Assembly: GCA_035607285.1 (NCBI GenBank)
Contig: DATNBZ010000020.1
Coordinates: 4,505-68,504, forward strand
DNA from: Blastocatellia bacterium
GTDB taxonomy: Bacteria; Acidobacteriota; Blastocatellia; UBA7656
Length of the DNA: 64,000 nucleotides
Direction of reading: 5' to 3'
Positions 1,729 to 11,982 of the stretch are shown piece by piece. Numbering within the stretch: position 1 is the stretch's first letter; each line of letters opens with the position of its first letter. The notes beneath the pieces were generated by a model, which was not told the DNA's origin, searched no databases, and saw only the letters and a list, made by a program, of their open reading frames with translations. The position numbers and the translations under genes were made by a program.

Positions 1729-1745
1729 AGTTGGCGAGGTGCTTG

Positions 1746-4178
1746 ATGGAAACTCTACTGCAGGACGTTCGTTACGCGATTCGAGCAATGCTCAAGAGTC
1801 CCGGCTTTACCGGCGTGGCAATTCTATCGCTTGCGCTGGGGATCGGAGCGAACGCCGCGATCTTCAGCCTGGTTAACCTGATTCTCTTTCGCCCGCTTCC
1901 GGTCCTTGAGCCGTCGCGCATCGTCGAGCTCACGCCGACCAGGCAAGGAAATGAGTTCAACAACTTTTCTTATCCGCTCTACCGAGACTTCCGCGATAAG
2001 AACGAGGTGTTCGAGTCACTCGCCGTTTATCGCTTCGCGCCCATGAGCCTGAGTCGTGAAGGCAACAACGAGCGGATCTGGGGCTACATTGTGTCCGGCA
2101 ATTATTTTGACATGCTCGGCGTGAAGCCCGCCGCCGGACGCTTCTTCACACAGGAAGACGATCGCGTGCCTGGCGCGAGTCCCGTGGCGGTGGTGAGCTA
2201 CGGCTGCTGGAAGCGGCGTTTCGGAGGCGATCCCAATCTGGTTGGAAAAGAGATCACCATCAACGGCGGTCGCTTCGACGTAGTGGGCATCGCTCCCGAA
2301 GGCTTCGGTGGAACGGTAATAATCTTTACGCCGGAGATCTGGGTGCCGGCGATGATGGCGCGGCAAGTCGAGCCGGGCTCGAACTGGCTGGATTCACCCA
2401 CGAACGGAGTGTTGTTCGCGCTCGGCCGGTTGAAGCCGGGAGTCACCGAGGCGCAAGCGGCTCAATCGCTTGATGCGCTGACGGAATCGCTTGTCGGCGT
2501 GTATCCGCACATCGAAGGCCAGACGATGGTGCTTTCGCCGCCCGGGTTGGTGATCCCGGCGCTCCGCAATGGAACGCTCGCGTTTTCATTTGTTCTGATG
2601 GCCGCGGTGGGGTTGGTATTGCTGATCGCCTGCACGAACCTCGCCAACATGCTTCTTGCACGAGCGACGCGCCGCCGCAAGGAGATCGCGATTCGCTTGT
2701 CGCTTGGAGCCAGCCGCGCGCGGCTCATTCGCCAGTTGCTAACCGAGAGTGTATTGCTCGCGCTGATCGGTGGAGTGATTGGCTGGCTCGTAGCGGTGTG
2801 GATGGTGCGGCTAGTCGGCGCGTTCAAACCGCCGGTTGATTTTACGTTGACCATAGACCTGAAACTCGATTGGCGAGTGCTTCTGTTCTCGTTGGTTGTT
2901 TCTTTGATCAGCGGGGTGATTTTTGGATTGATGCCCGCGTTGCACAGCACAAGGTCTGACCTGGTATCGGCGCTCAAAGCTGAAAGCCTTGCAGCCGGCC
3001 ACAGCCGATCGCGTTTGCGAAGCTCGCTGGTTGTCGCGCAGATAGCGTTCTCGCTGGTGTTGCTGGTGGCGGCGGGGTTGATCGTGCGCAGCCTGCAACA
3101 GGTGCAGATGATCGGGCCCGGGTTCAGGACCGAACGCACGCTGACTATGTCGGTTGACCTTGGCTTGCAGGGCTACACCGAAGCGCGCGGACAGGAGTTC
3201 TACAAGGAACTGATTGCGCGCTCGGAAGCGTTGCCCGGCGTGCGCTCCGTTTCGCTGGTGAACTACCTGCCGCTTGCGATGAATCGCAACACCACGAGCA
3301 TCTACATCGAAGGCCAGCCAACACCTCGCCCCTCCGATGTGCCCGAGATTCAAAACAGCACCGTGTGGCCGAAGTATCTCGAGACGATGGGCATACCGCT
3401 CGTCGATGGCCGTGAATTCACGATGCAGGACGATAAGAAGGACCAGCGCTTCGTGATGGTCAACGAAACTTTCGCGCGCCGCTTCTGGCCGGGCGAGAGC
3501 GCGTTGGGCAAACGAATTCGCAGCAGAACGGATGGACCGTATTGGGAAGTCATCGGAGTTGCGAAAGACGGCAAGTACTGGAGCCTCGGCGAAGACCCGC
3601 AGCCGTTTATCTACTACCCGATGGTGCGCGATTACGAAGGTTCAGCGGCGTTGATCGTCAGCGCCGATTCGGAACCCACCGGGCTCATCAACGCCCTTCG
3701 CCGCGAAGTGCAACAGATGGATCCGAATCTGCCGGTCTACGACGTGAAGACGATGAACGACCACATGCGGTTGTCGCTGTTCCCGTTGCGCGCGGGCGCC
3801 TGGGTTGCGGGCAGCTTTGCGTTGCTCGCGTTGACGCTTGCGGGTCTTGGCATCTACGGCGTGATGGCGTACTCGGTAAGCCAGCGCACTCGTGAGATAG
3901 GCATCAGAATGGCTCTGGGAGCCACTTCCAGTAATGTGCTCAGCCTGGTTGTCAAACAGGGAATGCGTCTCGCGTTGATTGGGCTTGGAGTCGGTCTGGT
4001 TGGTTCGCTTGCGGTTACTCGGCTGATGTCGAGCGTGCTTTATGGAGTGAGCGCAACGGACGTGATGACATTCACATTGGTTTCCGCGTTGTTAGCGGTG
4101 GTCGTGCTTGCGGCTTGTTACATCCCGGCTCGCCGCGCGGCGAGAGTCGACCCGATGATCGCGTTGAGGTATGAGTGA
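1746..4178 (+). CDS. ADOP/MacB-like duplicated FtsX ABC transporter permease (full length)
   Basis: N-term 'METLLQDVRYAIRAMLKSPGFT', two MacB_PCD+FtsX halves, C-term 'VDPMIALRYE'; start chosen at conserved METLLQ ATG (ORF track starts 5 codons earlier at 1731). Confidence 0.9.
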   Translation: METLLQDVRYAIRAMLKSPGFTGVAILSLALGIGANAAIFSLVNLILFRPLPVLEPSRIVELTPTRQGNEFNNFSYPLYRDFRDKNEVFESLAVYRFAPMSLSREGNNERIWGYIVSGNYFDMLGVKPAAGRFFTQEDDRVPGASPVAVVSYGCWKRRFGGDPNLVGKEITINGGRFDVVGIAPEGFGGTVIIFTPEIWVPAMMARQVEPGSNWLDSPTNGVLFALGRLKPGVTEAQAAQSLDALTESLVGVYPHIEGQTMVLSPPGLVIPALRNGTLAFSFVLMAAVGLVLLIACTNLANMLLARATRRRKEIAIRLSLGASRARLIRQLLTESVLLALIGGVIGWLVAVWMVRLVGAFKPPVDFTLTIDLKLDWRVLLFSLVVSLISGVIFGLMPALHSTRSDLVSALKAESLAAGHSRSRLRSSLVVAQIAFSLVLLVAAGLIVRSLQQVQMIGPGFRTERTLTMSVDLGLQGYTEARGQEFYKELIARSEALPGVRSVSLVNYLPLAMNRNTTSIYIEGQPTPRPSDVPEIQNSTVWPKYLETMGIPLVDGREFTMQDDKKDQRFVMVNETFARRFWPGESALGKRIRSRTDGPYWEVIGVAKDGKYWSLGEDPQPFIYYPMVRDYEGSAALIVSADSEPTGLINALRREVQQMDPNLPVYDVKTMNDHMRLSLFPLRAGAWVAGSFALLALTLAGLGIYGVMAYSVSQRTREIGIRMALGATSSNVLSLVVKQGMRLALIGLGVGLVGSLAVTRLMSSVLYGVSATDVMTFTLVSALLAVVVLAACYIPARRAARVDPMIALRYE

Positions 4179-4195
4179 AGATTTGAGGCATAGGT

Positions 4196-4212
4196 GAATG
4201 TAAGATTCACAA
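4196..4212. promoter_or_regulatory. Perfect palindrome GTGAATgtaagATTCAC in the AT-rich leader upstream of the KAP/NACHT operon (possible operator)
   Basis: 6-bp inverted arms with 5-bp spacer inside the 145-bp lower-GC intergenic region 4179-4323. Confidence 0.25.
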
Positions 4213-4323
4213 TCGACGTTTGAGAAGCAGATCCCTCTCAGCCATGTCCTTCTGTCGAAACTCTTCATAGCGGTTAACCTAGTTTTCAATTGATCTATCT
4301 TTGCCTCACTTTGCAAGCCGTGT

Positions 4324-5895
4324 ATGATTGTGAGCGCTGAAAGCGCGCGTCAAGTTGACCGAATGAGAGGGTCGATGATCTCGAACGATGAGCCAGTCTA
4401 TCTAGATGCCTTGGGTCACTACGAGTTGGCCAAGCAACTGGGCCATCGTGTGCTGAAGTGTCCCCCTCCATACGTTATCGGCGTATGTGGGTCATGGGGC
4501 TCCGGCAAAACAAGCTTCCTAAAAATGTTATGGGCGTATCTGGGGGGACCGGTTGAACTCGTTGGCCGGAAATTTGGAGGCTTGCGTGATGATGAGCGCG
4601 CGAAATGGTTCAATGAACCGCAGGACGACTTTAGTCCCCTGCTCAATAAGAGAAAGCTGGAGCTGATTTGGTTCAACCCCTGGCAGCATCAGTTCGAGAC
4701 AAGCCCCCTCGTGGCGCTGCTGAACGAAATACGCAAGCACTTTACAATGCCGCGGAAGGCATACGACGAAGCCGGGAGGCTCATTGACGTTGCAACTCAC
4801 GCTACCCTCAACGCTCTTGCAGATTTCGGAAAGGAACTCAAGATTCCGATCCCAGGCGCGAAAGGGATCATGGAAAGGGGCCGCGAATATGAAGGCGAGC
4901 ACTTTTCAACAGGACTGGCTTCGCAGCGTTTCCGCGATTTCTTTGAGGAGGCAATTCGTTCAGTCACCAAGAAAGGATTGCTGGTAATCTTCATTGACGA
5001 TCTCGACCGCTGCGAAGGTGACGTCGCTTATCATCTGCTTGAGGCACTAAAGCTTTATGTCAATGCGGATAACTGCATCTACGTTCTTGGGCTTGATCAG
5101 AACCACCTTGAGAGATCAATAGCGAAAGCATTGTCCGGGGAAGCAGAAAAGTGGCGTCATCGACCTCTCGCACGGGACTACCTCAGCAAGATATTTCAGA
5201 ACCTTTACCATCTACCGGTTCCGCGTCATACGTCACGGTACGTCGACGCCTTACTCGATGCAGACGACCCTGCCTTTAAGGCGCAACTTGGCCAGCTCTT
5301 TGGCCTAAATAATGCTGACTGGAAACTACTTGTAGAAGCGCTTGACGACAACTTGCCTCACAACCCTCGTAAGATTAAATCGTTCATTGGGTCGTGGAAA
5401 CTGTATCTTGATTCACTCATCAAGCCGGAAGGGCCCTCGGATAAGCTCGATTGGCGCCTGACATTGATACTGCATTATCTGGCGCAGTTTGAAGAGCCGC
5501 TCTTCCGAAAAGTTGAGGAGGCTCCCGCTTTCTACAGCGATTATATCATCCGATACTCCCGTGATGGCATCAATCGACACCCGTTGTTCGAGGGACTCGA
5601 GTTGCCTTACAGCACACCCTCGGCTGGATCAGAGGCTGACGAGAAGGGCGGACTCCCCTCGCCAGCGTCTGCTGCAGCGGCGGCCGATGAGTCTCAGGAT
5701 AACAAGAAGGATGAAAAACAAATCGAGGTTCAACCACGGATCTTTTGGATTAGTCGGTTGATTAACGGGCTTGCAAAAGAGACGAGATTTAAGCTCGATG
5801 ATGAAACCGTTCATCGCCATCTTCTGAGATCTGGTGGTAAGACACCCGAGCCGCCGCCCCCATTGCCTATTGTCCCAGGGGAGGCCACCGAATGA
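4324..5895 (+). CDS. KAP-family P-loop NTPase
   Basis: Walker A 'GVCGSWGSGKTS', Walker B 'LLVIFIDDLDRC', KAP signature 'NPRKIKSFI'; low-complexity acidic/Pro-rich C-terminus; start codon uncertain (M1, M14 or M18). Confidence 0.85.
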   Translation: MIVSAESARQVDRMRGSMISNDEPVYLDALGHYELAKQLGHRVLKCPPPYVIGVCGSWGSGKTSFLKMLWAYLGGPVELVGRKFGGLRDDERAKWFNEPQDDFSPLLNKRKLELIWFNPWQHQFETSPLVALLNEIRKHFTMPRKAYDEAGRLIDVATHATLNALADFGKELKIPIPGAKGIMERGREYEGEHFSTGLASQRFRDFFEEAIRSVTKKGLLVIFIDDLDRCEGDVAYHLLEALKLYVNADNCIYVLGLDQNHLERSIAKALSGEAEKWRHRPLARDYLSKIFQNLYHLPVPRHTSRYVDALLDADDPAFKAQLGQLFGLNNADWKLLVEALDDNLPHNPRKIKSFIGSWKLYLDSLIKPEGPSDKLDWRLTLILHYLAQFEEPLFRKVEEAPAFYSDYIIRYSRDGINRHPLFEGLELPYSTPSAGSEADEKGGLPSPASAAAAADESQDNKKDEKQIEVQPRIFWISRLINGLAKETRFKLDDETVHRHLLRSGGKTPEPPPPLPIVPGEATE

Positions 5896-8663
5896 CGGGT
5901 GTGATCAAGAAAGACCTCGAAGGCGATTACAAGTTATTGCTCTCATGGCGCTATAACAGCGTCGAGTTCCTTGGTCTACCTAGCCTGAAAGAGAATCGCC
6001 CGTTGACGCTCGAAGAGATATACATACCTCTGAGCTTTGCGTGGGAACAAGGTAGTGACAAGCGTGTCTACCTACCTGAAGCTCTAGAGACGAGCCGGCA
6101 ACTGGTCATACTAGGCGACCCAGGTTGCGGAAAGTCTACCCTGATTAAATTGGTTACCTACTCATTCGGAAGAACTGAACCTACACCACTCTCCCAGCGT
6201 TTTGGCCCGCTCGTGCCGGTGCCCATCATTCTGCGGGACTACCATGTTGGCTCATGGCAATCTAAAGAGGACATGCTGGACGATTTCATTGGCCAACTCG
6301 ACGAAGATATTCGTGATCGTGTCAGTGTGGGATGGCTATTGAGGGCATTACAAGAAGGCCGTGGCTTATTGCTCTTAGATGGCTTGGACGAAGTGGGAAG
6401 CAGTGAAGACCGCCTACATCTCAGAAACGACATCGTGCGCCCTTTACTTTCGATAATGCCCGAGAGTTATGCAATTCTCACTAGTCGGATAGTCGGCTAT
6501 GAAGAAGTGCCATACGGACATGACGAGGTTGGCATACTTCCACCCTTACTTCCTCGGTGCTACGTAGCGCCGTTCACTGATGAGGATATCGACCAGTTCA
6601 TCACACGCTGGTATGCGGCTCGCGAGCCTAACCCTGAGCGCAGGCGTACTGGGCTTCACTCGCTCGGCCAGGCCTTGCACCAGAATGACCGGATCAAGCG
6701 GCTGGCCACCAATCCTTCCCTGCTGACCCTGATGGTCTTGATCCATCGCGTCACGGCCCATCTACCGTCGGGCCGTGTGAAGCTCTACGACAAGATAGTC
6801 GAGGCCTATCTTGAGACCATCCAAACCTATCGGAAGCTCGGTCAATACCCAGCTTCGCTCGACCAGATGAAGCGCTGGCTTGCGAGGGTCGGTTGGGAGA
6901 TGCAGTCCAGCCGCGTTGGCGCTGGGGAAGGGGAACTAATGGTGCCACGCGATGACATCGTGGCATGGCTCACCGATGCCATCGATGTGGATCGCGTCGG
7001 CGCGGCGGCGGAAGCTGCCCAGTTCTTAGACTACGTGGCGCGCCGTAGTGGACTCTTGATTGAGCGCAAAAACGATGTGTTTGCATTCGTTCATCTGACT
7101 TTTCAAGAGTACTTTGCCGCGTTTCATCTGCGCGGCAAACTTGGACGCTTCGATGATTTGGCGAGCACGTCTGGCTTCCTAGTTGCGCAGGTTCACTGGC
7201 ACGAAACGCTTAGCCTTTTGTTTGAGATGCTGGCCGAATTCCCGGGAGCAGGGGACGATTTGTTGAATGAGATAGAGGAACGAACGAAAGGGTTTCCCGA
7301 TAAACGCGTCGGCGCGGCGGAGTTCGTCGCGGATTTATTATTGGACGACCAGAGCGGACTTGGTTTGCGTAGACAGACACAGGCGGCGGCCTACGCGCTA
7401 GGCGTAGCGACCGGCAGTTTCGATGAGGCAGTACTCGCGAGATTAAAACAACTCCCAGCAGACCGGTTCGAACAACTGGTCCGCAAATGGTTGGAGAAGG
7501 AACTCTGGCGTGCGAAACCGGAAAAACTGGGCCGCGATTTCTTTGTTGTTGGAGGTGATCTATTAGAGGACTGGTCACGCGTGTTGGGAGAATGGGTGAC
7601 TGCGCGCGGCGAGTTGCCATGGAGTGACTCGCAAATCGAAGACATCATTCTCATTGCCGGAGAGAGTCCCGAGGTGCACCGATGGGCGACGGAGTCGCTG
7701 CCTCTGAGCGGATGGCTGAAGGCTCGATCCTTGAGCTGGCATCATTACGGTTTGGCGAATCTGGCCGAGCTCAACTTGACTACATTGCTGGAAGCTAATG
7801 ATGAGTGCCCTCGGCATCAACTGCTAACTCAATTTGGTCTCGCTTCAGCTATCTCGGGCTCGGAGCTCATAAGGGTCTCGACGGCTTTGGCTTTCCATCA
7901 GAGGCCTGATCAGCCTGTAGTCCGGGCGTTGAGAGGAATTGAGGAGATCCTTCAGGATCGCGTTAAGCGCTATGCTCGGATGCTGGCTCTAGACTTGGCT
8001 ATGGGTCAGGCTTCTCCTCGGGATCGGGCACGAGTAGCGAGCCGAGGTCTGATTGTGGACCCGTATCTGGATGAACCTTTGGTTGGCCCTCTATTTCGTT
8101 CTTTGATCCTCTCTTCGCGTCTTCAACTGGCTTCAAATCTCGAATTGGCAATCTCATCATCAAAGCCGAAGCTGAGCGAAGAAAACAGAAAGATTGCCGC
8201 GCTCGCCGATGCAGAGTGTCTGTTCTTTTCACCTAAGACCTCACCCAAGCAATTCAATATCACAACGCGCAGTCTAAAAGAAATGACAACGGCCCAGGAT
8301 GAATGGACTCAACTGCTCGCCCTCTCCGCTTTGCTGATGCTCGGTGCAGGGACACCGAAAGCCTGCGGCAGCCGCAATGAGTTACTCGATAAGGCCATGA
8401 GGCAACCTCAAGCGTTCAGCTTTCCGCAAAAGGTGCGGCTGGAGACGGACACCCCCGCCTTCCACGAATCGCTTCCGAAGCTCATGCGTATGGTCTTCCT
8501 GCACGACCCCGACGATCCGTGGCTTTTGCCGGAGAAGCTTGATCGCTCGAATCCCGAGTCGCGTTTTTTCGTTTCTAGCCCACGCGAGTTCTATGCGCTC
8601 GCAGCCGAGGTTCTCGACCCTGAAGGCAAAACCGAACTGGCAGAATGGCGGAATAGTGATTGA
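5892..8663 (+). CDS. NACHT-domain STAND NTPase with about 480-aa alpha-helical C-terminal region
   Basis: Walker A 'ILGDPGCGKSTL', Walker B 'LLLLDGLDEV', sensor-1 'ILTSR', 'NPSLLTLM' motif; GGGAGG RBS 7 nt upstream; start overlaps the KAP stop by 4 nt (ATGA). Confidence 0.85.
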   Translation: MTGVIKKDLEGDYKLLLSWRYNSVEFLGLPSLKENRPLTLEEIYIPLSFAWEQGSDKRVYLPEALETSRQLVILGDPGCGKSTLIKLVTYSFGRTEPTPLSQRFGPLVPVPIILRDYHVGSWQSKEDMLDDFIGQLDEDIRDRVSVGWLLRALQEGRGLLLLDGLDEVGSSEDRLHLRNDIVRPLLSIMPESYAILTSRIVGYEEVPYGHDEVGILPPLLPRCYVAPFTDEDIDQFITRWYAAREPNPERRRTGLHSLGQALHQNDRIKRLATNPSLLTLMVLIHRVTAHLPSGRVKLYDKIVEAYLETIQTYRKLGQYPASLDQMKRWLARVGWEMQSSRVGAGEGELMVPRDDIVAWLTDAIDVDRVGAAAEAAQFLDYVARRSGLLIERKNDVFAFVHLTFQEYFAAFHLRGKLGRFDDLASTSGFLVAQVHWHETLSLLFEMLAEFPGAGDDLLNEIEERTKGFPDKRVGAAEFVADLLLDDQSGLGLRRQTQAAAYALGVATGSFDEAVLARLKQLPADRFEQLVRKWLEKELWRAKPEKLGRDFFVVGGDLLEDWSRVLGEWVTARGELPWSDSQIEDIILIAGESPEVHRWATESLPLSGWLKARSLSWHHYGLANLAELNLTTLLEANDECPRHQLLTQFGLASAISGSELIRVSTALAFHQRPDQPVVRALRGIEEILQDRVKRYARMLALDLAMGQASPRDRARVASRGLIVDPYLDEPLVGPLFRSLILSSRLQLASNLELAISSSKPKLSEENRKIAALADAECLFFSPKTSPKQFNITTRSLKEMTTAQDEWTQLLALSALLMLGAGTPKACGSRNELLDKAMRQPQAFSFPQKVRLETDTPAFHESLPKLMRMVFLHDPDDPWLLPEKLDRSNPESRFFVSSPREFYALAAEVLDPEGKTELAEWRNSD

Positions 8664-8710
8664 GCACCGAGGCTTGCAAAGACACCTTCAATAATCGCAC
8701 AAATGATGGA

Positions 8711-8846
8711 TTAATGGAGAGCATTCAAGACATTCGTTACAGCGCTCGCTCGCTGACTAAGACTCCGGGCTTCACGGCGGCTGCTGTTAGCGTGCTTTGC
8801 GCTCGGCATCGGAGCTAACACGGCTGTCTTCACCGTAGTCAAGCCG
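8711..8846 (+). pseudogene. 5' remnant (about 40 codons, frameshifted) of an ADOP permease gene
   Basis: Translates 'MESIQDIRYSARSLTKTPGFTAAAV', matching ADOP N-termini (compare 'METILQHIRYSVRSLIKTPAFTAVA' at 9511); frame breaks, then nucleotide similarity to 9511 continues to 'accgtagtcaa(g)ccgtgctg' and stops. Confidence 0.6.
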
Positions 8847-8986
8847 TGCTGCTCCAGGCGCCCCCGCAGTTGTTCTTCAGCGGTGATGATTGTGATTGCG
8901 ATTTCGTCAGCGGGAATGAGCACCAGTCGCTCGCGGATCTTTGGATTGCCCCATGGGTTCAGGCTGAGATGATCCGTATCCAACAC
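8847..8986 (-). pseudogene. Truncated PIN-domain (VapC-like) toxin gene, N-terminal about 45 codons only
   Basis: '(M)LDTDHLSLNPWGNPKIRERLVLIPADEIAITIITAEEQLRG' fits the VapC N-terminal pattern (hhLDTN..., ...ITxxEL.xG); the ORF then reads antisense through the ADOP fragment, so the 3' part of the toxin is missing. Confidence 0.5.
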
Positions 8987-8993
8987 GTACAAG

Positions 8994-9380
8994 TTACTGG
9001 TCCGATTCGCCAGTATTATTCTCCTGCCGATTGCGGGAAATCTCAGTCATAAAGTCGTCATAGGTGGGATCATCACGCAGACTGCCGTGAACCTCCAACC
9101 ACGGGTTTGCGGAGACAGGCGAGGGCGATTCGTCTATCTCTGGGAAGAGCGGCCTTTCACCTTGTGCCGCGCGGGTTTCATTCAGGGCGTGTTTCAAGTG
9201 CTCGAATGTCTCCCGCTGTTCACTCTCATCCTCTTCCAGAAAACGGTCAAGCACCGCCAGCGCGGCTGGGACATCGATTTTATGCAGCACGAAACCGGAA
9301 GTACGCGGACGATCGATAGCCAATTCATCCGCCGCTCGATGAGCGAGGCCGTCGTCTGACAATATACTCGGTTGATTCAT
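8994..9380 (-). CDS. Putative antitoxin-like small acidic protein upstream of the vapC remnant
   Basis: 128-aa ORF whose stop is immediately before the vapC start (classic antitoxin-toxin order); family not recognised. Confidence 0.45.
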   Translation of the reverse strand: MNQPSILSDDGLAHRAADELAIDRPRTSGFVLHKIDVPAALAVLDRFLEEDESEQRETFEHLKHALNETRAAQGERPLFPEIDESPSPVSANPWLEVHGSLRDDPTYDDFMTEISRNRQENNTGESDQ

Positions 9381-9510
9381 TTCTGCGGACTCCCATTCAT
9401 CGTCTTATGGCTTGCATTGTAGCACAAAGATGCGGTGTCCCAGGAGGTTACACTGTCAGGCGTCCTGCGCTACTATTGCGTCCAGCAGAGTTTCGCGCGT
9501 GAGGCGTTCA

Positions 9511-11982
9511 ATGGAGACTATCCTTCAACACATTCGATACAGCGTTCGGTCGCTGATAAAGACCCCAGCCTTCACGGCGGTTGCGATCGTCGTTCTTGCG
9601 CTTGCCATCGGCGCCAACACCGCGATCTTTACCGTAGTCAACGCCGTGCTGATTCGGGCGCTCCCTTATCCCAATTCGGATCGGCTCGTGATGCTCTGGG
9701 AAACAAATCCGCGGTTCCAGATCGGAATCGATACGCTGCCCGTTACGCCAGGGACTTTCATGGATTGGCGAGAACAGAGCAGCGTCTTCGAACATATCTC
9801 AGCGCTGGGAGCCGGGCGTTTGAATCTGTCGGGCTCGGGTGAGCCTGAACGAATCAGTGGCGCCACCGTCTCTGCAAATTTCTTTCGATTGATGGGTATT
9901 GAGCCGAAGCTCGGTCGGGCGTTTCAAGACGACGAAGAGAAGCCCGGCGCAACCAAGGTGGCTGTCATAAGCCATGCGCTTTGGCAGAGGCGCTTCGGTG
10001 GCGCGGAGGATATTGTTGGGAAACCGATGACGCTCGACGGCGAGAGCTACACTGTAATCGGCGTCGCACCGGAAGGATTCCAGTTTCCACGCGCACGCGA
10101 GCTTCCTTACTTCGTCGGCGTGTCGTCGGCAACAGAGCTATGGCGACCGATGATTCAGTCGGAAGATTTCATTAGTAAGAAACGCGCGAATCATCAGATG
10201 ACGGTCATAGCGAAACTCAAACCCGGCGTTACTCGCGAGCAAGCTCAAGCCGAGATGACTGCGATCGCCTCGCGGCTCGAGCAAGCCTACCCGGAGAACC
10301 AGGGAATCGGCGCGAAGGTCGTTCCGCTAAGCGAGCAAGTCGTCGGCAACTCCAGAATCGCGTTGCTTGTATTGATGGGCGCGGTTGGATTGGTTCTGTT
10401 GATCGCGTGTGCGAACGTCGCCAACCTGATGCTCACTCGAGCTTCGGGAAGAAGGAAAGAGATTGCTATTCGAATCGCGCTCGGCGCAAGTCGCCGGGAC
10501 GTAATACGTCAACTGATGAGCGAGGCCCTGCTCCTCTCGCTCGCAAGCGCAGTCGCCGGAACGCTGTTGAGTCTCTGGGGCGTCAAAGCGATGCTGGCGC
10601 TAACGGGCAAAAATCTTCCCCGGCTGAACGAAGTCACTGTCGACCCGACGGTTCTTGGATTCACCGTAGCGATCGCCTTGCTGACCAGTCTGTTCTTCGG
10701 ACTGACACCCGCGTTGCAAGCTTCAAAAATCAATCTCGTCCAGACGCTGAAGGACGGCTCTCGAGGACAGTCAGGCGGGCGAGGTGCGAATCGCGTTCGC
10801 GGCGCGCTGGTTGTTGCGGAAGTTGCTCTCTCGCTGGTGTTGCTGATCGGCGCCGCGTTGATGATCAAGAGTCTTGCGCAACTGCTCGAGGTCGATCCGG
10901 GCTTTAAGACCGATCGCGCGCTCACAATGAACATAGCGTTGCTCGGATCAAAGTACCCGAGCGCGAATCAGCAAATCGGTTTCTTCGACGAGGTTCGCCG
11001 TCGCGTCGAGGTTTTGCCCGGCATCGAGTCTGTAGGGTTGATCTCATCGGCGCCTCTGAGCGGAGGAGTCTACGCGGGAGGCTTCTCGATCGAGGGCCGT
11101 GGGCCGAGGTCGGCGAATGAAGACCTCTCGGCCGACAGACGAATGATCAGCCCCGAGTATTTCAACGCTCTTCAGATTGCGCTCATCAAGGGCCGCTACT
11201 TCACCGAACGCGATAATCAAGCGTCGACCGGGGTCGCGATTGTGAGCGATTCGTGGGCGCGACGGTTTGTGCCGGACGACGATCCGATTGGCAAGCGCAT
11301 CAAGCTTGGCGGCCGCGACTCGACTCGACCGTGGCTTTCGATTGTTGGAATAGCCGGAGACGTTCGAGACACCGCGCTCGAATCGGATGCGCGGCCTTGC
11401 GTGTATTTGCCTTATTCGCAGTTCCCGGCTTCGAGTATGTCTCTTGTTGTGCGCACCGCGGTCGATTCCAGAGCCGAGTCAAAAACCTTGGTGCCCGCGA
11501 TTCGAAGCGAGGTGTGGGCGATCGATAAGGACCAGCCGGTAACGGACGTAAAGACGATGGACGAATACGTCTCGGATTCGGTTTCACCGCGTCGCGCGAA
11601 CGCGCTGCTGCTGGCCGTGTTCGCGGCGTTGGCGCTTGCGCTTGCCTCGATAGGAGTCTACGGAGTGATGGCTTATTCGGTGGCGCAGCGAGTTCGCGAA
11701 ATCGGTATCCGGATGGCGCTTGGCGCGCAGAGGTCGGATGTTGTCAGGCTGATCGTCGGAAGCGCTATGACTCTCGTGTTCGCGGGTGTGGGGATCGGGC
11801 TCGCGAGCGCGCTGGCGTTGAGCCGCGTGTTATCGAGCTTACTTTATGGAGTGAGCGCGACCGATCCAATGACTTTTGCTTTCGTTTCTGTTTTGCTTGT
11901 GTGCCTGGCATGGTTCGCAAGTTACATCCCGGCCCGCAGGGCTACAAAGGTTGATCCGATGATTGCCTTGCGACACGAATGA
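9511..11982 (+). CDS. ADOP/MacB-like duplicated FtsX ABC transporter permease (full length)
   Basis: 'METILQHIRYSVRSLIKTPAFT...' to 'VDPMIALRHE'; start taken at the conserved MET codon 9511 rather than the ORF-track start 9412. Confidence 0.9.
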   Translation: METILQHIRYSVRSLIKTPAFTAVAIVVLALAIGANTAIFTVVNAVLIRALPYPNSDRLVMLWETNPRFQIGIDTLPVTPGTFMDWREQSSVFEHISALGAGRLNLSGSGEPERISGATVSANFFRLMGIEPKLGRAFQDDEEKPGATKVAVISHALWQRRFGGAEDIVGKPMTLDGESYTVIGVAPEGFQFPRARELPYFVGVSSATELWRPMIQSEDFISKKRANHQMTVIAKLKPGVTREQAQAEMTAIASRLEQAYPENQGIGAKVVPLSEQVVGNSRIALLVLMGAVGLVLLIACANVANLMLTRASGRRKEIAIRIALGASRRDVIRQLMSEALLLSLASAVAGTLLSLWGVKAMLALTGKNLPRLNEVTVDPTVLGFTVAIALLTSLFFGLTPALQASKINLVQTLKDGSRGQSGGRGANRVRGALVVAEVALSLVLLIGAALMIKSLAQLLEVDPGFKTDRALTMNIALLGSKYPSANQQIGFFDEVRRRVEVLPGIESVGLISSAPLSGGVYAGGFSIEGRGPRSANEDLSADRRMISPEYFNALQIALIKGRYFTERDNQASTGVAIVSDSWARRFVPDDDPIGKRIKLGGRDSTRPWLSIVGIAGDVRDTALESDARPCVYLPYSQFPASSMSLVVRTAVDSRAESKTLVPAIRSEVWAIDKDQPVTDVKTMDEYVSDSVSPRRANALLLAVFAALALALASIGVYGVMAYSVAQRVREIGIRMALGAQRSDVVRLIVGSAMTLVFAGVGIGLASALALSRVLSSLLYGVSATDPMTFAFVSVLLVCLAWFASYIPARRATKVDPMIALRHE

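Follow-up and report, generated by a model that had tools for sequence, protein, structure and literature searches.

A 64,000-nucleotide (nt) stretch of DNA from a Blastocatellia bacterium (Acidobacteriota; GenBank assembly GCA_035607285.1, contig DATNBZ010000020.1, positions 4,505 to 68,504), referred to here as the window, carries two adjacent genes on its plus strand, the first encoding a KAP-family P-loop NTPase and the second a NACHT NTPase of the STAND class (Table 1). We consider it about an even chance (probability roughly 0.5) that these two genes are a self-contained and mobile NLR/STAND-type module of two NTPases, most likely directed against phages or other invaders, in which the NACHT protein is the receptor and KAP takes the place of the output.

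The KAP and NACHT genes form one unit

The TGA stop codon of the KAP gene overlaps the ATG of the NACHT gene by 4 bp (ATGA), and a Shine-Dalgarno sequence lies 7 nt ahead of the NACHT start. The same arrangement recurs in related loci. A NACHT-anchored scan of one genome per species (185,579 species) gave about 233 relatives, from which 80 loci were fetched, 77 of them with upstream DNA. Of these 77 loci, 67 have a KAP homologue immediately upstream in the same orientation, and in 49 of them no more than 100 nt separate the KAP stop from the position that corresponds to residue 1 of the window NACHT protein. Most related loci have a listed NACHT open reading frame (ORF) that begins 4 nt ahead of the KAP stop (for example, start 7905 and stop 7908). 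Anchoring the scan on KAP in metagenome contigs shows the NACHT gene next in 19 of the 20 loci with downstream DNA. KAP and the NACHT core diverge in step, with a close correlation between their pairwise distances (Mantel r 0.92, reached by none of 999 permutations), which indicates that the two genes are inherited together. No third conserved gene was found, as clustering of the neighbouring ORFs gives only KAP, NACHT, and their antisense shadow ORFs. KAP is an obligate partner of NACHT, and the two genes are one unit. A previous reading of the window made from the letters alone (the sequence-only reading) had treated them in this way and had named independent expression and separate function as contrary evidence; the overlap, the counts from both scans, and the distance correlation speak against both.

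Wider gaps between the two genes occur in some loci, measuring 0.35-0.53 kb in L007, L010, L011, and L060 and 1.3-1.8 kb in L047, L056, and L072, and may come from frameshifted KAP genes, inserted genes, or longer spacers. No KAP-NACHT fusion protein is present among the top 120 hits of either protein search, which were not a systematic search for fusions.

The NACHT protein carries no detectable effector at either end

The downstream protein, of 923 aa, is the same as NCBI HXU35017.1, named 'NACHT domain-containing protein [Blastocatellia bacterium]' and derived from a metagenome-assembled genome (MAG). The Pfam NACHT model matches its residues 69-242 with 39.5 bits against a cut-off of 26.7. 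The Walker A motif fits the GxxxxGK[ST] pattern and begins exactly at residue 75, where the sequence-only reading had placed it, and the Walker B motif fits D[GAS]hDE, the signature that sets NACHT apart from other STAND clades (bioRxiv 10.1101/2022.07.19.500537). D163, G164, D166, and E167 of the Walker B motif are invariant in 66 aligned NACHT homologues, and residues 243-450 contain the invariant blocks F399-x-H401-L-x-F-Q-E-Y-F-A-A410, in the winged helix, and W436-H-E-T. The AlphaFold2 model built from the 66-sequence alignment (predicted local distance difference test score, pLDDT, 89.4; predicted template-modelling score, pTM, 0.83) has the layout of solved NLR structures, with a nucleotide-binding domain, a helical domain, and a winged-helix domain, and its best Foldseek matches in the PDB are NLRC4 (4kxf, E 2e-10), NOD2 (5irm), and NLRP9 (7wbu), with E values from 2e-10 to 8e-08. 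By every one of these sequence and fold criteria, the protein is a bona fide member of the NACHT clade. NCBIfam and PADLOC also match it to EruA, mad3, and mad8; these matches are at the level of the P-loop only, and we rejected membership in those families.

Residues 1-68, ahead of the nucleotide-binding domain, have no Pfam match even at E<=10, and in the model they form one helix and a few short strands that run into the first strand of the P-loop domain. Most of this segment is kept in most of the relatives that are fused to an N-terminal DUF4062 domain, with alignments beginning at query residue 12-24. Because it is also kept in relatives that carry an N-terminal domain, we assign it to the NACHT module and not to an effector, and the proposal of the sequence-only reading that the protein lacks an N-terminal effector is borne out. 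At the other end, residues 801-923 likewise have no Pfam match even at E<=10, and Foldseek detected no effector fold; thus no fused N-terminal or extreme C-terminal effector or adaptor of the kind carried by bNACHT/Avs proteins was found.

The C-terminal region of the NACHT protein is hypervariable and exchangeable

Residues 450-923 contain 15.2% Leu and 10.3% Ala and are all helical in the AlphaFold2 model. Below the NLRs, the Foldseek list for the model continues with designed armadillo repeats, karyopherins, PP2A-A, and SF3B1, at low TM-scores and with E values of 2e-4 to 1e-2. A Pfam search of the protein sequence detects no HEAT, ARM, or TPR repeats. 'HEAT/ARM-type solenoid' is a fair description of the modelled fold. 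The sequence-only reading had described about 480 Leu/Ala-rich residues of the HEAT/ARM/TPR type; its composition and its helical, ARM/HEAT-like fold hold, whereas repeats detectable in the sequence do not, and its length has to be revised. Residues 417 to about 510 are conserved helices that the LRR, TPR, and HEAT relatives also have; alignments with relatives in other phyla extend to query residue 448-545, and the invariant W436-H-E-T block and D485 lie inside this part. Because these helices are still part of the NACHT module, the family-specific C-terminal part is about 400 aa, not 480.

The mean pairwise identity is 28% over residues 451-800 compared with 58% in the NACHT core, and the majority-residue fraction per 25-residue block is 0.22-0.46 throughout these residues, with block 476-500 (0.62) as the sole exception. 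In the cap at residues 801-923, the mean identity is 49%, the majority-residue fraction returns to 0.5-0.7, and the pLDDT is 92-98; the conserved positions of the cap in the 66-sequence alignment are largely hydrophobic. A phmmer search with residues 501-923 against 1.84 billion representative proteins gave 46 hits, all of them members of this family or fragments of members, and no other architecture. The C-termini found on the KAP-linked NACHT core are the Acidobacteriota-specific solenoid, LRR arrays, or regions without a Pfam match, and wider relatives of the core also include TPR and HEAT C-termini. Sensor domains of NLR-type receptors behave in this way. The suggestion that the C-terminal region is the likely sensor is thus supported by its hypervariability, its place in the protein, and its replacement by LRR, HEAT, or TPR arrays in relatives.

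The KAP protein is a soluble P-loop NTPase with a conserved C-terminal element

The Pfam KAP_NTPase model matches the upstream ORF with E 1.2e-27 and 97.4 bits (cut-off 20). The longest ORF begins at position 4324, and translation most probably begins at M18, with AGAGGG ahead of it, because homologues align from residue 13-21 onward and the NCBI protein has 506 aa. The JGI call for this gene has 456 aa and apparently starts inside the protein, beyond Walker A. The Walker B motif (FIDDLDRCE in context) is the most conserved block of the protein, and the invariant NPR motif in the helical lid may be an arginine finger or a sensor. The PDC-S20 hidden Markov model (HMM) of PADLOC, which has no curated threshold, matches KAP at 4.8e-32 over model positions 64-360 of 464. 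The AlphaFold2 model (pLDDT 82.3) shows a P-loop domain, a helical lid, a disordered linker, and then a short confident C-terminal element. RdrA is its best Foldseek match (E 4e-07, TM-score 0.41), followed by BrxC and ORC/Cdc6, and no extra domain is left over. The ATPase motifs of KAP are intact, and its fold is of the ring-ATPase kind.

Many KAP proteins, though not all, carry transmembrane helices inserted in the P-loop domain, as Aravind et al. are said to have described in 2004, and PifA is reportedly membrane-associated. No transmembrane segment was found in the window KAP, in which the top 19-residue Kyte-Doolittle window reaches 0.97; the region equivalent to the transmembrane insert (residues ~141-200) is modelled as soluble helices with low confidence. 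The upstream protein is a bona fide KAP-family NTPase and is soluble.

The tail of KAP had been described in the sequence-only reading as Pro-rich, acidic, and of low complexity. An acidic linker (residues 431-461) and a Pro-rich end (505-523), the latter not conserved, are indeed present, but between them lies a conserved folded element, residues 469-503 (pLDDT ~93-95, mean identity 42%). Alignment of more than 60 loci shows that this element is kept as '[Y/F]PDPxxxxVFWIQxLI...YLHG' in the KAP partners of all phyla examined. The last 64 residues of KAP have no Pfam match even at E<=10. The mean identity of KAP is 58%, equal to that of the NACHT core.

In both proteins together, Pfam, NCBIfam, PADLOC, fold search, and hydropathy detected no nuclease, NADase, protease, pore, or transmembrane domain. 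An effector domain in either protein had been named beforehand as evidence against the sequence-only reading, and none was detected by sequence and fold searches.

KAP occurs where an N-terminal domain is absent

Among the relatives of the NACHT protein with upstream DNA, ten lack a KAP gene, and every one of these ten has an N-terminal domain. In nine it is DUF4062 (E 1e-11 to 1e-20; loci L023, L027, L030, L037, L059, L064, L066, L067, and L070), reported in two 2026 preprints to be a TIR-like NADase effector that is active in bacterial defence and also stands N-terminal to NACHT in TEP1, NWD1/2, and NPHP3. The tenth, L076, from a Melioribacteraceae MAG and with a HEAT C-terminus, has neither KAP nor DUF4062; an ORF of 149 aa just upstream of its NACHT gene (L076:7180-7629, plus strand) gives a weak match to NNH2 ('NACHT N-terminal helical domain 2', E 1.6e-4) and may be a split or frameshifted N-terminal domain. 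Conversely, an N-terminal domain is absent from all ten KAP-linked NACHT proteins scanned with Pfam, and because the gaps between KAP and NACHT are short, there is little room for one in most of the other KAP-linked loci. These observations make it plausible that KAP fills the missing N-terminal, or output, slot, a view that rests on the N-terminal domains of the ten KAP-less relatives. The DUF4062 forms fall into two distinct clades of a neighbour-joining tree, and one of these clades lies within the KAP-linked lineages. Because there are only two such clades, KAP and DUF4062 were exchanged at least twice, but not many times.

The module is widespread, patchy, and possibly mobile

The KAP and NACHT module is spread over at least nine bacterial phyla with a patchy distribution (about 233 hits in 185,579 species representatives). 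Loci are present in Acidobacteriota, Pseudomonadota (alpha, beta, and gamma), Desulfobacterota, Planctomycetota, Verrucomicrobiota, Spirochaetota, Binatia, Hydrogenedentes, Nitrospirales, and Armatimonadota. The cassettes of several MAGs titled 'uncultured Heliomicrobium', 'Heliobacteriaceae', or 'Clostridia' (L006, L007, L011, L014, and L016) group with those of Blastocatellia and Acidobacteriota, and these bin labels look doubtful. A homologue from Desulfonema limicola (P0093) was sought as a cultured example, and the look-up returned no record.

The GC content of the window falls to 0.51-0.55 across positions 4000-9500, compared with 0.58-0.60 in the flank ahead of the cassette and 0.57-0.59 beyond about 10 kb. 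Flanking genes vary between loci, with transposases among them. The 128 flanking ORFs of 36 loci, searched with Pfam and PADLOC and given as raw counts, are mostly metabolic or housekeeping genes and include a few methyltransferases, mad2, PDC-S01, PDC-M72A, and six transposases. A search of plasmids with KAP gave eight weak hits. Plasmid MAGMO_p1 of Candidatus Magnetococcus massalia MO-1 (L128; NZ_LO017728.1) carries a degraded copy of the module, in the order truncated KAP, IS4 transposase, short hypothetical ORF, truncated NACHT, and IS1380 transposase. The best plasmid match to KAP is a 345-aa KAP NTPase on pREC4 of Acaryochloris marina MBIC10699 (L127; 28.7% identity), whose gene is followed by a pentapeptide-repeat protein and an integrase and not by NACHT; it may be a different pairing of KAP or a decayed locus. 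The dip in GC content, the varying flanks with their transposases, and the plasmid copy broken by insertion sequences (IS) are the basis on which horizontal mobility of the module is included in the joint estimate given above.

A proposed division of labour and its alternatives

In the model that we infer for the immune role, the direction of signalling, the physical contact between KAP and NACHT, and the effect of KAP on the cell, the NACHT protein would be both receptor and switch. Its hypervariable C-terminal α-solenoid would bind the trigger, and binding would free the NACHT module for nucleotide exchange and oligomerization. KAP, co-translated from the overlapping upstream gene, would stand in for the N-terminal output domain, which in the sister lineages is usually the DUF4062 NADase, and would carry out or relay the response by an ATP-dependent and probably ring-forming activity of its own. 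It may dock on the NACHT oligomer through its conserved C-terminal motif at the end of the flexible linker, and this motif may be regarded as the natural candidate for such docking. The sequence-only reading had offered two roles for KAP, effector or second sensor. The first is compatible with the output slot to which the exclusivity with N-terminal domains points, with no effector activity that can be assigned; the conservation of KAP, which equals that of the NACHT core, speaks against the second. A bolder possibility, to which we give tentative credence at most, is that the KAP ATPase is itself the executioner of an unrecognized class of immune systems spanning many phyla, with an effector-less NLR-like receptor signalling to it. 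KAP might then hydrolyse NTPs in a runaway manner, or it might use ATP to remodel an essential complex of the host or of the phage.

Several observations weigh against the proposed module. Few independent events lie behind the pattern in which KAP and an N-terminal domain exclude each other, so that this pattern is suggestive and weighs less than the raw counts would imply. The KAP model, with a P-loop domain and a helical lid only, allows no effector chemistry to be assigned to the protein, and RdrA, its best structural match, regulates a separate effector and is not the effector itself (PMC9994260). No clear enrichment of defence genes is seen in the raw counts for the flanking ORFs. On viral contigs only NACHT proteins with identities of 27% or less and without KAP were found, and no close relative. 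Nearly all members of the family come from uncultured MAGs.

The order of signalling could be the reverse of the one proposed, with KAP as an upstream sensor, loader, or licensing ATPase, similar to RdrA or Cdc6/ORC, that governs the assembly of NACHT. The NACHT oligomer would then be the output, for example, by sequestering the bound target or by acting through the conserved C-terminal cap. Such a cap is present on the NACHT proteins of the Acidobacteriota clade, and Kibby et al. (bioRxiv 10.1101/2022.07.19.500537) note that the far C-terminal end of some bacterial NACHT proteins bears an effector or a tether. The structures that best match the KAP model, those of RdrA, BrxC, and ORC/Cdc6, all belong to ATPases with a regulatory or loading role. 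However, the cap is missing in the LRR, HEAT, and TPR relatives that keep KAP, and therefore it is not a shared output. KAP, with the same 58% identity as the NACHT core, also has no hypervariable surface comparable to NACHT residues 451-800, and its exclusivity with N-terminal effector domains puts it in the output slot. We consider the reversed order unlikely.

That sister lineages place a bona fide NADase on the same NACHT core argues for a catalytic output of the abortive-infection type and makes it improbable that the pair is an effector-free stoichiometric system, in which NACHT would trap a component of the invader and KAP would be an ATP-driven recycling or disassembly factor or a chaperone, with no killing. 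No precedent for a sequestering NLR-type receptor was found in the literature searched, although the failure to detect an effector domain in either protein is what such a system would lead one to expect. A housekeeping module for signal transduction, consisting of a MalT/AfsR-style STAND switch and an accessory ATPase and unrelated to invaders, would agree with the mostly metabolic flanks, with the absence of any clear defence-island enrichment in the raw counts, and with the location of the window pair between paralogous ADOP permeases. Yet a DNA-binding domain, or any other domain for regulatory output, is absent from both proteins, and the patchy spread, the non-conserved flanks, the low GC content, the hypervariable and swappable C-terminus, the IS-broken Magnetococcus plasmid copy, and the match to PDC-S20 are typical of conflict systems and favour such a role here, which leaves the housekeeping reading quite improbable.

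Relation to known systems

The window NACHT protein shares with the bNACHT/Avs proteins (bioRxiv 10.1101/2022.07.19.500537) a NACHT module with D[GAS]hDE and, in the sensor position, a hypervariable, superstructure-forming C-terminal array, in this case residues 451-800 with their ARM/HEAT-like fold. All bacterial NACHT clades except clade 14 carry fused effectors according to the same preprint, and the described proteins act as single genes, whereas the window protein is effector-less at both ends and paired with KAP. The DUF4062(NIR)-NACHT sister proteins have the same core (28-40% identity over residues ~12-450), also match Pfam NPHP3_N, and carry C-terminal LRR or HEAT sensors of the same kinds; TEP1, NWD1, and NPHP3 are their eukaryotic counterparts in the literature. 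They have the TIR-like NADase at the N-terminus and no KAP neighbour, and the arrangement is reversed for the window protein.

RADAR is likewise a two-gene system with a ring-forming ATPase, the heptameric RdrA, which its depositors label a KAP NTPase. The partner of RdrA is the adenosine deaminase RdrB, compared with a NACHT receptor here, and RdrA has ~800-900 aa and a second layer, compared with the 506 aa of KAP. The sequence profile of KAP against solved structures matches RdrA marginally (E 0.002 over ~60 residues). Membership in RADAR was rejected, as the likeness to RdrA is at the fold level only and no deaminase is present in the window or in related loci. PifA, QatA, and PDC-S20 share the KAP P-loop domain, with HMM E values of 1.6e-19 for PifA and 5e-19 for QatA beside that for PDC-S20. 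The QatA match reaches 78.2 bits against a cut-off of 600 and covers residues 201-310 only, QatBCD are absent, and the neighbours are ADOP permeases and NACHT; KAP was therefore not assigned to QatA. PDC-S20 is listed as a single-gene candidate, whereas the KAP subfamily described here has NACHT next to it.

NAIP-NLRC4 in animals and RGA4/RGA5 and the NRC networks in plants are sensor/helper NLR pairs. They share with the window pair two NTPase switches side by side, one of them with a variable recognition surface; here, however, the second NTPase is KAP and not a STAND protein, and neither partner has a recognizable executioner. No account of a KAP-NACHT operon turned up in the papers that could be searched; most papers in subscription journals lie outside that set and may contain an earlier one. 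The closest published remark concerns systems with effector-associated domains, in which KAP can take the place of the STAND NTPase (PMC8195603).

Other features of the region

The cassette lies within a tandem array of ADOP-family duplicated permeases (Table 1). A 144-bp direct repeat with 80% identity occupies positions 8724-8865 and 9524-9665, the first copy being located just past the NACHT stop. The repeat is a duplicated 5' fragment of the next ADOP permease gene, with the peptide MESIQDIRYSARSLTKTPGFTAAAV in one copy and METILQHIRYSVRSLIKTPAFTAVAI in the other. It points to a rearrangement or insertion beside the NACHT stop, and it also suggests that the true start of the ADOP gene, listed at 9412, is near 9508. 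The minus-strand ORF at 8711-8992 opens like a PIN/VapC toxin by eye (MYVLDTDHLSL...ITAEEQLRGRL) and continues as the antisense of the ADOP fragment, and the ORF at 8994-9380 encodes an acidic 128-aa protein in the antitoxin position. The resemblance of these ORFs to PIN/VapC-like and antitoxin-like proteins is visual, and Pfam gives no support for it even at E<=10. The candidate promoter ahead of KAP is one of only 2 such sites in the region, compared with 3.6 expected by chance.

Table 1. Positions in the window of the KAP and NACHT genes, their domains and motifs, and neighbouring features
Feature	Position	Strand	Basis or remark
Candidate sigma-70-like promoter, weak (TTGCCT-16-TATGAT)	4301..4328	+	Tentative; position fits the M18 start at 4375
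KAP-family P-loop NTPase gene, 506 aa from M18 (= NCBI HXU35016.1)	4375..5895	+	Pfam, homologue alignment, NCBI start
KAP Walker A, G56-SWGSGKT-63	4489..4512	+	G56, W58, G59, G61, and K62 invariant in 71 homologues
KAP Walker B, D225-DLDRCE-231	4996..5016	+	All seven residues invariant in 71 homologues
KAP motif N347-P-R349 in the helical lid	5362..5370	+	Invariant in 71 homologues
KAP linker, residues 431-461, disordered, low-complexity Ser/Ala/acidic	5614..5706	+	pLDDT <50; mean pairwise identity 23%; variable in length and sequence
Conserved KAP C-terminal element, residues 469-503, 'PRIFWISRLI...RHLL'	5728..5832	+	Candidate docking motif
Translational-coupling junction	5878..5895	+	GGGGAGG Shine-Dalgarno 5878-5884, NACHT ATG 5892, ATGA 5892-5895
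NACHT (STAND) NTPase gene	5892..8663	+	Pfam NACHT, AlphaFold2 model, Foldseek NLR matches
NACHT pre-P-loop segment, residues 1-68	5892..6095	+	Part of the NACHT module; no separate effector or adaptor domain
NACHT nucleotide-binding domain, residues 69-242	6096..6617	+	Pfam and motifs
NACHT Walker A, G75-DPGCGKS-82	6114-6137	+	Sequence read; first residue exactly 75
NACHT Walker B, LLLLD163-G-L-D-E167	6366-6392	+	Sequence read
NACHT helical and winged-helix domains, residues 243-450	6618..7241	+	Alignment, AlphaFold2; conserved across phyla
NACHT variable α-solenoid, residues 451-800	7242..8291	+	Candidate ligand sensor; first ~60 residues shared with distant relatives
NACHT conserved all-helical C-terminal cap, residues 801-923	8292..8660	+	Acidobacteriota-clade-specific; conservation, model
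Small ORFs between NACHT and the next permease	8711-8992, 8994-9380	-	By eye only
ADOP-family duplicated permease tandem array	103-1368, 1731-4178, 9412-11982		Flanks the cassette; full-length copies at 1731 and 9412 match TIGR03434 with E 8e-298 and 0

Implications

Bacterial NLR-like (STAND) receptors are currently viewed as single proteins that join sensor, switch, and effector. The family described here leaves the effector position vacant; what is conserved instead, across at least nine phyla, is a separate KAP ATPase that is co-translated with the receptor. If the module is an immune system, the NLR chassis can pass its output to a second NTPase, and KAP ATPases would gain a testable role; the mechanisms of PifA, QatA, and RdrA-like proteins are only partly understood. 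The natural alternation on one NACHT core, with KAP in trans in some lineages and the DUF4062 NADase in cis in others, would then provide a built-in comparison for how NACHT oligomers activate their outputs. Should KAP be the executioner, the pair would be a prokaryotic counterpart of the sensor/helper NLR pairs, and the KAP family would receive a defined output role. The system is experimentally tractable, consisting of two genes in ~4.3 kb, and proteobacterial versions with LRR sensors exist.

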